Assembly (NCBI GenBank): GCA_963696535.1
Contig: CAVOKP010000015.1
Location: 46,525-110,524 of the forward strand
Source: an uncultured Bacteroidales bacterium
GTDB taxonomy: Bacteria > Bacteroidota > Bacteroidia > Bacteroidales > VadinHA17
Reading direction: 5' to 3'
DNA: 64,000 bases
Each line of letters starts with the position of its first letter. Within the stretch, counting starts at the first letter, position 1. The translations under genes and the position numbers were made by a program. Below the pieces are notes generated by a model. The model did not search any database. It was not told where the DNA came from and saw only the letters and a program-made list of their open reading frames with translations. This document shows positions 16,808 through 64,000 of the stretch, one piece after another.

Positions 16808-17776
16808 ATGAAAAAAAAGCCGAGTCTGATCGTAATCCTGCCATTTATTTTGTCTGGTGCATTATTTTGCCAGGAGGCTGATTATGGACCAGGTTACCAG
16901 ACCATGATCGTCAGCAATCCGGCGTTTGCCGGAAGCAGTCTTGATGGCACGCTGCGGCTTTCATATCTTAATTTCTATCCCGGGAACAATTTTAATTTCC
17001 ATTCGGTTTTTCTTTCATATGACTCCTATTTTGAAATCCTGCACGGAGGAGCAGGTTTCTTCCTTTCAAACGATTATACCGGGGGAATAGTGAATGATTT
17101 AAGAGGAGGCCTGTCGTATTCATATTTTTTGCAGGCAGGCAGGGATCTTTATATTAATGCCGGACTCTCCGCTTCGTTTTTCAACCGGGGTTTTAATTTC
17201 AGCGGGGCTGTTTTTCCCGATCAGATTGATCCCATGGGCGTAGTTTCGCTGCCAACCTCCGAACTGGTATCCAATGAGAACAGGATGGTGTTTGATGCCG
17301 GAACAGGTTTTATGTTCATTTATAAGAATCTGTCGGGAGGATTCGGTCTGACCCACCTTACCCAGCCTGATCTTTACGGAACAGGATCCTCAGATGGGAG
17401 GCTGAAACGAAAATACCTTGTTCACATGATGGCGGATTTTGATCTTAAACGAGGCAGCGACCTTAAAATAACACCCCTTGCTTCATTTGAATTACAGGGA
17501 AAGTACCTCTGCACCTCAGCTGGGGCCATTCTCGCAAGTAATTATTTGTCATTAAATACTTTGATACTGGCTGATAACAACGGCAAAATTGATGTTCTGG
17601 CAGGTTTTTCCCTTAGGCGGGAAAAGCTCGGATTGTACTATAATTATCAGTTTAACCTGAGATCGGACAATTCCGTGATACCATTTTCCGTTATGCATCA
17701 GACAGGCCTGACTTTCAGTTTAGATTATGTTGAAAAAAGAAATAAAGTCAGGACAATAAATGTACCTTATATGTAG
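16808..17776 (+). CDS. PorP/SprF family T9SS membrane protein
   Basis: NPAFAG motif near the N-terminus, 'HLTQPD', beta-barrel pattern; lies between porU and gldJ. Confidence 0.8.
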   Translation: MKKKPSLIVILPFILSGALFCQEADYGPGYQTMIVSNPAFAGSSLDGTLRLSYLNFYPGNNFNFHSVFLSYDSYFEILHGGAGFFLSNDYTGGIVNDLRGGLSYSYFLQAGRDLYINAGLSASFFNRGFNFSGAVFPDQIDPMGVVSLPTSELVSNENRMVFDAGTGFMFIYKNLSGGFGLTHLTQPDLYGTGSSDGRLKRKYLVHMMADFDLKRGSDLKITPLASFELQGKYLCTSAGAILASNYLSLNTLILADNNGKIDVLAGFSLRREKLGLYYNYQFNLRSDNSVIPFSVMHQTGLTFSLDYVEKRNKVRTINVPYM

Positions 17777-44549: not shown

Positions 44550-44624
44550 TGGGCGATGACGGGTTCGAACCGCCGACCCTCTGCTTGTAAGGCAGATGCT
44601 CTGAACCAGCTGAGCTAATCGCCC
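44550..44624 (-). tRNA. tRNA-Val (anticodon TAC); 3' CCA not encoded
   Basis: GGGCGATTAGCTCAGCTGGTTCAGAGCATCTGCCT-TAC-AAGCAGAGGGTCGGCGGTTCGAACCCGTCATCGCCCA folds as a cloverleaf. TATATTTG box at 44644-44651 (minus strand). Confidence 0.97.
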
Positions 44625-51932: not shown

Positions 51933-52292
51933 ATGTTAGAGCACTTGACAAAAGAGACTTTTCTCAGCAAGGTATTCAATTTTGAAACCAATAAGGAATG
52001 GAAATTTGAAGGTGACAAGCCATGTGTTATAGATTTTTATGCCGACTGGTGTGGTCCATGTAAAATGGTGGCCCCTATACTGGAGGAACTCGCAAAGGAT
52101 TTTGAAGGGAAGCTTGATATTTACAAGGTAAATACCGAAGATGAGCAGGAACTGGCTGCAGTTTTTGGAATCAGAAGCATTCCTTCAATACTTTTTGTTC
52201 CGGCAACCGGTCAGCCTCAGATGGCAATGGGTGCACTTCCAAAGGATACATTTATCAAGGCATTTAAGGATGTTCTTGGCGTGGAGAAATAA
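51933..52292 (+). CDS. trxA: Thioredoxin
   Basis: DFYADWCGPC, FGIRSIP. Confidence 0.95.
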   Translation: MLEHLTKETFLSKVFNFETNKEWKFEGDKPCVIDFYADWCGPCKMVAPILEELAKDFEGKLDIYKVNTEDEQELAAVFGIRSIPSILFVPATGQPQMAMGALPKDTFIKAFKDVLGVEK

Positions 52293-52373
52293 TATGTTAA
52301 TAAAAAAACTTCACTTTGTTAAAAAAAAAATAGGGAATGAATGAAACATTGCATATCTTTAATACGTTATAAG

Positions 52374-52478
52374 GACAAAAGGTAGTAACCGATTTGGTTA
52401 CATGAGTTTTTTTCATGGATTTAGGTTTAGGGTAGTAAAGTAAAAACCCGCAAAACGCCTGTTTTGCGGGTTTTTTAT
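52374..52478 (+). ncRNA. Candidate small RNA (ECF-type promoter, internal hairpin, intrinsic terminator); 5' end approximate
   Basis: TGAAAC-N17-CGTTAT at 52342-52370; hairpin GTAACC-GATTT-GGTTAC; no coding frame on the + strand; strong terminator at 52442-52476. Confidence 0.45.
52442..52476. terminator. Bidirectional intrinsic terminator (xseB end / + strand transcript)
   Basis: AAAAACCCGCAAAAC-GCCT-GTTTTGCGGGTTTTTT. Confidence 0.88.
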
Positions 52479-52672
52479 TCAAGGTCCTTAAGAATATTGT
52501 TTATATCCTCCTCAGTCGATTTCAGCTTCTTCTGGCACTGCTTTATAAGCTCTGAAGCCTTTTTGACCTCAACGGAGAGCCTGTCGACATCCATATTTCC
52601 ACTTTCAATTTCCTTTAAAATCTTTTCAATCTCATTTACCGCCTGATTGAACGAAAACTCCTTTTTTATCAT
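52475..52672 (-). CDS. xseB: Exodeoxyribonuclease VII small subunit
   Basis: SFNQAVNEIEKIL..IESG...L.KQCQKKL; directly after xseA. Confidence 0.9.
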   Translation of the reverse strand: MIKKEFSFNQAVNEIEKILKEIESGNMDVDRLSVEVKKASELIKQCQKKLKSTEEDINNILKDLE

Positions 52673-52682
52673 ATATTTTGAA

Positions 52683-53915
52683 TTATAATACTTTACTATT
52701 TATCGAACCATCACTGAACCTTGTATCAATAATATCATCCTTCTTAAGGATATTGCTTTCCTTAATGATTTTTCCATTGATCGATGTAATCGTAAAGCCT
52801 CTTTTCAATACGTTTGCCGGGTCAAGTATCTTCAGTGAGTTTTCAAATCCTGCAACCCTGTTGATTAAGAATCCCAGTGAGTTTTTTGAAAGGCTCGTCA
52901 GGATTTCCGTCTTCCGGATTATTGCATTATTGTTTAGCAATATCATGTTCCGAGAAACCGGGATAATCCTTAAACGTGCAGTTTCAATCCGGCTTTTGCC
53001 CTCTTCGATCATATGTCTGGATCTGTAGGCTATTTCACTTCCCAGGTCCGTCAGATGATTTTCTGCACTTATCATGCATTCGATAAGGAAATCGGCCACC
53101 GCAGTTGGTGTTTTCAATGATCTGTGAGCAACAATATCAGTTACAGAAAGATCCTTGTCATGCCCGATGCCTGTAATTACCGGCAATGGGAACTGAGTTA
53201 CATAAAAAGCTACATTGTAATTATCGAACCAGCTTAAATCGGTTTGCGAGCCTCCTCCCCTTATTATTACGGCAAGATCGAATTCACCGGAATGAATTGA
53301 TATTTTTTCCAGTGCTTTTATTATGCCGTTTTCCAGTTCCTTCCCCTGCATCGGTGTCTCAAACAGCGACGTATAAAAAACATAACCAAAACCATTGCCT
53401 TTCAGATGGTTCATGAAATCGGTATAACCGGCAGCACTGGCAGATGAGATTACTGCAATTCTCTGGGGTAGAGTCGGGAATTCAATGTCCCTGTTCATTG
53501 TAATCACGCCTTCCTCCCCGAGCCTTTTAAGGATCTGCTGACGCTTCAGCGCCACCTCGCCGATAGTGAATGCCGGATCAATATCATTTACCACCAGGCT
53601 CAATCCATAGATCTCATGATATTCGATTTTTACCCGGATAAGTACCTTGAGTCCCTCCCGCAGAGATTCTCCTGCCGAGTTCTCAAAAAATGATTTGATG
53701 AACCTGTAACGGCTGTTCCATATTACAGCTCTTACCCGCGATCTAATGATGACCTCATCAGGGTGCTTCTCAACAAGCTCAAGATAGCAATGGCCGTTGT
53801 AGTTCTCCTTTATCTCCGATATTTCGGCTGTTACCCAATACAAATCGGGCAATGCCAGATAAAGTGAATCCTTTATGACCAGCTGCAATTCTGTTAGCGA
53901 AAGTTTTTCTTTCAT
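52683..53915 (-). CDS. xseA: Exodeoxyribonuclease VII large subunit
   Basis: WVTAEISE, GHCYLEL, RIAVISS, IIRGGGS, ITGIGHDKD, TPTAVA, LKRGF. Confidence 0.95.
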   Translation of the reverse strand: MKEKLSLTELQLVIKDSLYLALPDLYWVTAEISEIKENYNGHCYLELVEKHPDEVIIRSRVRAVIWNSRYRFIKSFFENSAGESLREGLKVLIRVKIEYHEIYGLSLVVNDIDPAFTIGEVALKRQQILKRLGEEGVITMNRDIEFPTLPQRIAVISSASAAGYTDFMNHLKGNGFGYVFYTSLFETPMQGKELENGIIKALEKISIHSGEFDLAVIIRGGGSQTDLSWFDNYNVAFYVTQFPLPVITGIGHDKDLSVTDIVAHRSLKTPTAVADFLIECMISAENHLTDLGSEIAYRSRHMIEEGKSRIETARLRIIPVSRNMILLNNNAIIRKTEILTSLSKNSLGFLINRVAGFENSLKILDPANVLKRGFTITSINGKIIKESNILKKDDIIDTRFSDGSINSKVL

Positions 53916-63271: not shown

Positions 63272-64000
63272 ATGAAAAAAACATTGGAAAGACGTTCAAG
63301 TTTCTTTATTCTGATACTAATTTTTGCAGGCCTGAACTCATGCAGGGTTTCAAAACCCCTGGTGACGCTTTCTTCCATAAGCGGTTCTGTCGCGAATTAT
63401 ATAACCACCTACAAGGACCTGGCCATTAGTGAAATGAGGAGGACCGGTGTTCCGGCCAGCATCACGCTCGCACAGGGAATGCTTGAATCGGATTACGGCC
63501 GGAGCACCCTCGCCAGGATCGGGAATAATCATTTCGGAATAAAATGCCATAATGGCTGGAACGGTCAGACAATGAGGCAGCATGATGACAGGCGGAACGA
63601 ATGTTTCAGAAAGTACAGAAGGCCCGAAGATTCATTCTATGATCATTCAGATTTTCTGAAGACAGGCTCCCGTTACAGTTTCCTTTTTGATCTGGATCAG
63701 ACGGACTATAAATCATGGGCACGGGGCCTCAGGAAAGCGGGTTATGCTACAAATCCCGACTATGCAAATATGCTTATAAGAAAGATTGAAGAGAATAAGC
63801 TTTATGATTTTGATAAGGGTTTTACAGCCTCCTATTCTGCACCACCGGAAAAGGTTCAGGAAAAGTTGCCGGAAAAGATTCAGGGCAATACCCGGGTTAA
63901 GGGTAGCGGTGAGGTGATCCCGGCTGAGACGAAATCCGGAACCGGCGAAACGGCAAAAGTAAAGCAGGAAACCATAACATTCGGGGATGTGATGGCAAAG
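63272..64000 (+). CDS. GH73 glucosaminidase domain protein (peptidoglycan hydrolase), 3'-truncated by the window edge; absent from the ORF track
   Basis: Hand translation from ATG 63272: MKKTLE...LNSC...GVPASITLAQGMLESDYGRS...NNHFGIKCH...ECFRKY...GYATNPDYA; open to the end of the window. Confidence 0.9.
   Translation, partial: MKKTLERRSSFFILILIFAGLNSCRVSKPLVTLSSISGSVANYITTYKDLAISEMRRTGVPASITLAQGMLESDYGRSTLARIGNNHFGIKCHNGWNGQTMRQHDDRRNECFRKYRRPEDSFYDHSDFLKTGSRYSFLFDLDQTDYKSWARGLRKAGYATNPDYANMLIRKIEENKLYDFDKGFTASYSAPPEKVQEKLPEKIQGNTRVKGSGEVIPAETKSGTGETAKVKQETITFGDVMAK

Follow-up and report, generated by a model that had tools for sequence, protein, structure and literature searches.

The window (the whole stretch of DNA analysed, 64,000 nt) contains a gap between trxA and the convergent gene xseB, in which a promoter-like motif, a hairpin, a nearly invariant block and a terminator follow one another on the + strand. 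The features of the locus are as follows.

51933..52292, + strand: trxA (thioredoxin; Pfam Thioredoxin, 85 bits)
52313..52331, + strand: conserved TTTG plus A-tract, 5' of the -35-like box (alignments, column counts); it may be an UP-like element
52342..52347, + strand: -35-like box TGAAAC (GnAAC), with AAC in 60/60 and the G two bases before AAC in 56/60 distinct sequences
52365..52371, + strand: -10-like box CGTTATA (CGTTnnA), with CGTT and the A three bases after it in 60/60
52377..52478, + strand: predicted sRNA of ~102 nt, with a putative start and an end set by the terminator U run
52385..52401, + strand: 5' leader hairpin GTAACC-GATTT-GGTTAC (fold, and covariation across relatives)
52407..52438, + strand: seed block U7-CAU-GGAUUUAGGUUUAGGGUAGUAA, nearly invariant in 41 distinct genus sequences; the RF04319 seed aligns here
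52414-52416, + strand: CAU (anti-AUG), within the seed block
52417-52432, + strand: deepest conserved core, GGAUUUAGGUUUAGGG, kept in sister genera
52442-52475 (stem; the element extends to 52478), both strands: Rho-independent terminator, with a U run 3' of the stem on each strand
52475..52672, - strand: xseB, the convergent neighbour (Pfam Exonuc_VII_S)
52683-53915, - strand: xseA (Pfam)

No terminator separates the predicted sRNA gene from trxA, in whose 3' region it sits. The start of the RNA was placed from the positions of the boxes and by analogy with the gibS-like loci described below, where the RNA begins 7 nt past the -10 hexamer. The individual elements reported in the preliminary description were recovered: TGAAAC and CGTTAT lie at 52342-52347 and 52365-52370 in the trxA-xseB gap and are separated by a 17-nt spacer, the hairpin is present at its reported position, and the strong terminator consists of the stem followed by a U run. 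The middle segment, described as the reverse complement of a start region, is an exact one over 52406-52435 (...AAATCC-ATG-AAAAAAAC), and the reported lack of a + strand ORF after the boxes agrees with the finding of none of at least 20 aa in 52345-52463. The predicted RNA contains two copies of the word GGUAGUAA, one at the base of the 5' hairpin (52381-52389) and one at the 3' edge of the seed block (52430-52439); the genus conserves both. Elsewhere in the window, a tRNA gene at 44550-44624 (- strand) is the sole Rfam match at the gathering threshold.

A 110-nt query detected the element in 101 of the 120 genomes sampled from the genus (66 of the 74 high-quality ones), nearly always once per genome, and in 4 of the 20 sampled genera of the family (32 of 39, 8 of 16, 1 of 1 and 2 of 5 genomes); the segment, whose lack of conservation was to have counted against an sRNA, is thus conserved. 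A query of the 188-nt gap recovered the locus across the genus and gave no convincing match when 16 further genera of the order were searched. In a scan of one genome per prokaryote species, at least 119 contigs contained the 23-mer core; among the matches listed, nearly all carriers are titled uncultured Bacteroidales or Bacteroidota MAGs, together with some Rikenellaceae and one Gammaproteobacteria. Of 61 distinct loci, 60 retain the order trxA-element-xseB and one, on a truncated contig, does not; trxA lies upstream on the same strand, 112-137 nt ahead of the seed, in 60 of 61. The block UUUUUUCAUGGAUUUAGGUUUAGGGUAGUAA hardly varies among the 41 distinct sequences of the genus, and its flanks are variable. 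The locus is a conserved gene and not a product of chance.

The segment 52375-52478 folds with -31.3 kcal/mol and a z score of -4.1. RNAalifold, applied to a MAFFT alignment, recovered the terminator core alone, and the 5' hairpin was therefore tested with a user-supplied structure. In this test, 88.9% of the cells were paired, all six pairs showed at least one change on both sides, with several G-U wobbles, and the observed covariation values were reached by none of 500 shuffles; a clear 5' hairpin was missing in approximately 8 of 41 per-sequence folds read by eye. The terminators vary in sequence between subgroups, are always present and have many compensatory changes. The covariation check across related trxA-xseB gaps that had been recommended thus revealed compensatory changes in the hairpin and the terminator alike. 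Since the terminator stem has a U run on both strands, it would also end the convergent xseB-xseA transcript. The seed is half open in silico, with a mean paired probability of 0.47 for the block and 0.63 for CAU, whose pairing arises partly from a small CAUGAG/UUCAUG hairpin.

Based on the invariant block, the variable hairpin with compensatory changes, the ever-present and variable terminators and the absence of a conserved ORF on either strand, it is very likely that the locus is an sRNA gene, as had been proposed, and these comparative sequence data also bear on two simpler explanations. The real product would be a small minus-strand protein, MKKTHV..., if the 39-aa frame that starts from ATG in the window, inside a 61-aa TTG ORF, were translated; across the 41 distinct sequences, however, this frame varies from 5 to 36 aa with unrelated tails, ATG is replaced by ACG in one sequence, and the ATG is absent in 11 of 11 sister-genus sequences. 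Since the frame is not conserved, it is not a gene, and we consider the chance of such a protein negligible. It is also very improbable that the gap holds a mere terminator shared by trxA and xseB, with the upstream motifs there by chance: the terminator is indeed bidirectional, but a 30-nt block is nearly invariant and seven promoter positions are invariant in ~100 species, whereas neighbouring non-coding bases vary. A look for RNA runs containing the stretch found none, and in the contigs of three metatranscriptome runs from the same study, only the thioredoxin active-site region was matched, by sequences from other organisms, and none of the matches lay over the sRNA.

The AAC, the CGTT and the A three bases on are the most conserved upstream positions, and the 60 distinct sequences that keep them come from four genera. 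Between AAC and CGTT, 47 sequences have a spacer of 17 nt and 13 have one of 16 nt; the spacer columns agree in just 25-42 of 60. At -35, 34 sequences read GAAAC, 15 GTAAC and 6 GCAAC, and the remaining 5 have other words. Judged by its letters, AAC-N16/17-CGTT is the pattern of ECF-type promoters; in Bacillus subtilis, sigmaW, sigmaX and sigmaM are associated with TGAAAC, TGTAAC and TGCAAC and with CGT-type -10 boxes. A CGT box at -10 is also read as an ECF hallmark in the account of Flavobacterium psychrophilum consulted here (PMC9723704). Two other candidate promoters were ruled out, namely a canonical promoter beside the seed, for which the GATTTG of the hairpin loop is not conserved, and a TAnnTTT(G/A)-like word in the spacer, which is not conserved across the genus.

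The strict pattern TG.AAC[AT][AT]T-N13/14-CGTT.[AT]A occurs once in the bacterium's own 2.65-Mb genome (79% complete), at the sRNA locus, and in a weight-matrix scan of the same genome the sRNA scored 30.2 bits and the next match 17.8. Eleven ECF-size sigma genes are present in this genome, two of which have GTAAC-N16/17-CGTC upstream, a different motif. In five complete relatives, there were 11 non-sRNA pattern matches versus 7 control matches, and none of the 11 preceded a sigma gene. A loose AAC..CGT pattern was linked to the seed no better than a control in five FopS-rich genomes. Neither the own-genome weight matrix, nor the sigma-gene upstream regions, nor the five complete relatives yielded a sigma factor assignment. 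Of the ECF-type promoter claimed in the preliminary description, the invariant boxes and their spacing stand, but these searches matched no sigma factor to it. In some genera the AAC/CGTT motif is partly palindromic, and a dimeric regulator may therefore act there instead. In what was seen of the papers from a full-text literature search, there is no description of an ECF-driven sRNA in Bacteroidota.

A related motif, T(G/T)AACA-N16/17-TGTTWW, is near-palindromic and lies 20-45 nt 5' of several start codons in the own genome; as a loose pattern it gave 30 upstream matches versus 20 for a control. From their N-termini, we take some of its carriers to be ferritin-like (C13:499630), glutathione-peroxidase-like (C9:94921), SufB-like (C20:41974) and a primary sigma factor (C19:147765). 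Some of these carriers look oxidative-stress related by their N-termini, which recalls the description of the PM2 promoter in B. thetaiotaomicron.

The nearest promoter parallel was found at gibS-like loci. A sub-threshold FopS match in a Bacteroides-like genome corresponds to a gibS-like locus, whose RNA of ~150 nt begins with the seed and which has a GH13/CBM48 branching-enzyme gene two genes downstream. The aligned set comprises 16 orthologous loci, called gibS by synteny alone, with 15 distinct upstream sequences (L345 and L349-L363, Bacteroides-like genus g132). In 14 of the 15, GAAC-N16/17-(T/C)GTTWW is followed, after 6 nt, by GTG, at which the RNA starts, and two have CGTT. The spacing from AAC to YGTT equals that of the trxA-xseB locus, whereas the -35 word is GAAC as against GnAAC. 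A gibS-like query gave no matches at E <=1e-6 in the own genome and one other genome of the genus. In B. thetaiotaomicron, gibS is described as driven by a non-canonical promoter, PM2, with boxes at approximately -10 and -30 (PMC7366714). We infer that GAAC-N16/17-(T/C)GTTWW may be this published PM2, whose logo appears in a figure only; the parts consulted of a Segatella preprint and of a 2026 review do not give the PM2 sequence.

The 11 sister-genus sequences, from three genera, show which parts of the element are older. They keep the promoter (GTAAC, GCAAC, GAAAC or GGAAC, then N17-CGTT), the first transcribed bases AGAAGGUA and the core GGGAUUUAGGUUUAGGG, and they have no 5' hairpin. CAU is absent in 11 of 11, with CUG in its place, so that the anti-start triplet belongs to the genus and is not the oldest part. 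The loss of the anti-AUG and the retention of the UUUAGG repeats point to the 5'-UTR motif AACCUAAA, and not the start codon, as the conserved recognition site. As for the earlier suggestion that the RNA covers start codons, the mechanism is described as proven for FopS and GibS in the text consulted (PMC11697453), but coverage of the AUG is not the deepest conserved feature here.

A paralogue is present in the own genome outside the window, at C20:69217-69293 on the + strand (approximately 1501-1577 of L001). It has a related seed, UUUUUCAUAGGUUAGGUUAGUUUUAGGGUUAUC, with UUAGG repeats as well, a conserved leader and a terminator, and a perfect canonical TATCTTTG box lies ~50 nt 5' of the seed. 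This paralogue occurs in 59 of 60 sampled genomes of the genus, in some of them as two or three tandem copies (e.g. L210, L214, L215). With a housekeeping promoter on the paralogue and an alternative one on the trxA-xseB RNA, the lineage would mirror Bacteroides.

The Rfam check of the trxA-xseB gap, recommended at the outset, brought out a known family. In a permissive scan, RF04319 (FopS) matched 52406-52479 end to end, with 32.1 bits (E 0.0044) against a cut-off of 56, and by hand count the seed agrees with the FopS consensus at approximately 23 of 28 aligned positions. Other scores in the genus were 33.8 bits for the paralogue and 40.8 bits for one other genome, all below the cut-off. Of 151 genomes sampled across the order, 22 had an RF04319 match that passed the cut-off, and the number of matches at E <=0.01 went up to 13; the genus was represented in this search by the own genome and one other, neither of which reached the cut-off. 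As a control, 14 well-known genomes were searched, and RF04319 at E <=0.01 matched B. thetaiotaomicron only. Further sub-threshold FopS-like RNAs with architectures of their own were seen in other families of the order (L062-L069); that of L065 has a canonical box ~55 nt upstream, a leader and the seed UAUUUCAUAGGUUUAGGUUUUAGG.

As described in the consulted text of PMC11697453, FopS comprises 14 paralogous sRNAs of 65-70 nt in B. thetaiotaomicron, which have a single-stranded 5' seed, a terminator and a canonical promoter. By pairing beside the start codon, they keep susC-type mRNAs from being translated; the RRM protein RbpB works against them and binds the 5' part of FopS, and FopS-14 is derived from a 3' UTR (PMC11697453). 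GibS (BTnc035) of the same species is described as having an R1 seed that pairs with translation initiation regions (PMC11697453, PMC7366714). Given the FopS-type match, FopS and GibS of Bacteroides already provide known cases of an sRNA that is antisense to translation starts.

Two targets within the window had been suggested, the GH73 gene at 63272 (ATGAAAAAAAC) and porP at 16808 (ATGAAAAAAA). Both matches are real, but they are merely ATG plus A-runs of low complexity. A 17-nt start-region pattern allowing up to 3 mismatches gave 2 matches in the window, one of which is the locus itself, versus 0.69 expected. On the genome scale, the core GGAUUUAGGUUUAGGG is complementary to AACCUAAA, a motif that is enriched at about 18 nt before the start codon: 20 of 2088 predicted genes have AACCTAAA in the 50 nt upstream, at a median position of -18, versus 1.1 expected from its genome-wide frequency (~18-fold). 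It ranks 204th of 34,103 8-mers, the 25 commonest being A/T-rich words or -7 promoter boxes. Carriers include a tuf-like gene (C13:2177), a tpiA-like gene (C9:76919) and two SusC-like genes (C17:31559 and C22:20793), and with tuf- and tpiA-like genes in it the set is not obviously an envelope regulon.

Unconstrained duplex energies had a median of -14.5, and 381 genes scored -18 or better; they were judged too noisy and gave way to in-register scoring, in which CAU is held on AUG. With the real seed in register, 141 genes scored -12 kcal/mol or better and 60 scored -14 or better; 12 shuffled seeds with CAT fixed gave 18-94 and 7-36 genes at these levels, and with internal decoy ATGs the counts were 75 and 30. 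The best energy of any one gene, -23.0, was matched or beaten by 4 of the 12 shuffled seeds (to -27.4) and by decoy ATGs (-24.0). Among 2090 genes, the in-register score puts first a SusC-type receptor of 1026 aa, whose domains are CarbopepD_reg_2, Plug and beta-barrel, and rank 8 is another TonB receptor. The 18 mappable Plug-domain genes score better than the rest (one-sided p = 0.019). In the five closest relatives of the top receptor that were listed (58-87% identity), (A/T)CCTAA(A/T) lies ~10-20 nt before the ATG, as ACCTAAA in three. The SusC-like receptor is the best predicted target, with target statistics that are weak.

Taken together, these results suggest a trans-acting sRNA of ~100 nt, made from its own promoter inside the trxA 3' region and blocking translation in the manner of FopS and GibS, a prediction to which we assign a probability of roughly 0.6 as a whole and in which we infer transcription, start site, acting sigma factor, targets and repression. 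The RNA would end at the terminator shared with the convergent xseB. Its AAC-N16/17-CGTT promoter would be read by an alternative (ECF-like) sigma factor, and with a promoter of this type the RNA would probably be made only on a signal. The middle part, i.e., the U-run, the CAU and the UUUAGG repeats, would pair with the 5' UTR and the start codon of mRNAs carrying AACCUAAA... AUGAAAAAA, the mRNA of a SusC-like TonB-dependent receptor probably among them, and the pairing would block translation initiation, an effect for which FopS and GibS of B. thetaiotaomicron provide experimental evidence. The paralogue elsewhere in the genome would carry its similar seed behind the canonical housekeeping promoter.

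The constant position of trxA leaves room for a different origin of the conserved block, which could be a cis element or a processed product of the trxA mRNA 3' UTR, with AAC and CGTT acting as RNA-level signals or as the site of a regulator. In 60 of 61 loci trxA stands on the same strand and precedes the seed by 112-137 nt, with no terminator between, which would fit such an origin, as would the published derivation of FopS-14 from a 3' UTR and the inverted repeat GTAACAA/TTGTTAC that the boxes form in sister genera. This repeat is not kept in the genus itself, however, and the invariant positions with their 16/17-nt spacing, common to the gibS-like promoters, fit a -35/-10 pair; we therefore regard an exclusively 3'-UTR element as unlikely. 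Because trxA is always upstream without a terminator, an origin by read-through or processing may coexist with the internal promoter or replace it. A second rival concerns the UUAGG(G) repeats, which might titrate an RRM-type RNA-binding protein as a decoy rather than pair with mRNAs. The tandem UUUAGG repeat is the deepest core, kept across genera while the anti-AUG is lost, the paralogue shares UUAGG repeats, the genome encodes an RRM_1 protein, and RbpB is described as binding the 5' part of FopS (PMC11697453). The ~18-fold enrichment of the repeat complement in 5' UTRs, at a fixed distance from the start codon, nevertheless favours RNA-RNA pairing, and in Bacteroides RbpB antagonises the sRNA and is not its object, so that a decoy appears quite improbable.

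A more far-reaching reading of the trans-acting sRNA joins the two lineages, and we offer it as a tentative one that is more doubtful than not. Under it, the trxA-xseB RNA would be the first ECF-sigma-dependent sRNA of Bacteroidota and an ancient sister of GibS, the GibS/FopS superfamily would be paired by promoter, and AACCUAAA would be the primary recognition element. If this is true, one paralogue stands behind an AAC-N16/17-YGTT alternative-sigma promoter and one or more behind a housekeeping promoter, the PM2 of Bacteroides is an ECF-type promoter, and a stress signal throttles the translation of a defined set of mRNAs, including those of SusC-like transporters, via AACCUAAA ~18 nt before the start. 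The occurrence of an alternative-sigma-type promoter with the seed in both lineages provides a testable lead on what reads the PM2 of gibS. FopS and GibS have so far been described in gut Bacteroidaceae only, and the same seed logic now appears, with a different architecture, in a large uncultured environmental lineage of Bacteroidales. The proposed recognition site AACCUAAA would also bear on how sRNAs find their targets in a phylum without Shine-Dalgarno sequences.

In regulatory logic, the RNA may resemble the enterobacterial SigmaE sRNAs RybB, MicA and MicL, in which an ECF sigma factor drives an sRNA that stops outer-membrane proteins from being made; the start of MicL lies within or behind another gene. 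In sequence and structure, by contrast, RybB, MicA and MicL are unrelated to the trxA-xseB RNA. We know of no Hfq in Bacteroidota.

The likeness to FopS is closer. In both, a Rho-independent terminator comes soon after an R1' seed, SusC-type receptors, whose mRNAs are the known targets of FopS, also supply the top prediction here, and a paralogue with a canonical promoter is present in the same genome as the trxA-xseB RNA; the one RRM_1 protein of the own genome belongs to the class of RbpB. On the other hand, true FopS loci have TAnnTTTGCAnnGTG immediately 5' of the seed, where the trxA-xseB locus has a variable hairpin loop, with its boxes ~40 nt upstream. The RNA lacks a TAnnTTTG box at the seed and the GGTTGTC/GACAACC terminator of the family, and its seed follows a leader of ~30 nt, whereas that of FopS lies at the extreme 5' end. 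Copy number differs as well, with 12-15 FopS loci per genome versus 1-2 here (two in the own genome, 79% complete), and so do the carriers, gut Bacteroidaceae in one case and uncultured environmental Bacteroidales in the other. By these sequence features, the trxA-xseB RNA falls outside the FopS family as Rfam defines it; by analogy, it most likely works like FopS and GibS.

GibS shares with the trxA-xseB RNA the character of a trans-acting sRNA with an R1-type seed (UUUUUCAU...). It is longer (~145 nt) and has a single-stranded 5' end (1-38), two central hairpins and a second seed (R2), and its first seed lies at the very 5' end of an RNA encoded next to the glycogen operon. The trxA-xseB RNA, in contrast, is ~102 nt long, has a 5' hairpin before the seed and no central hairpins, and is encoded between trxA and xseB. 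In promoter logic, as far as the sequence patterns of the two loci can be compared, GibS is its closest parallel.
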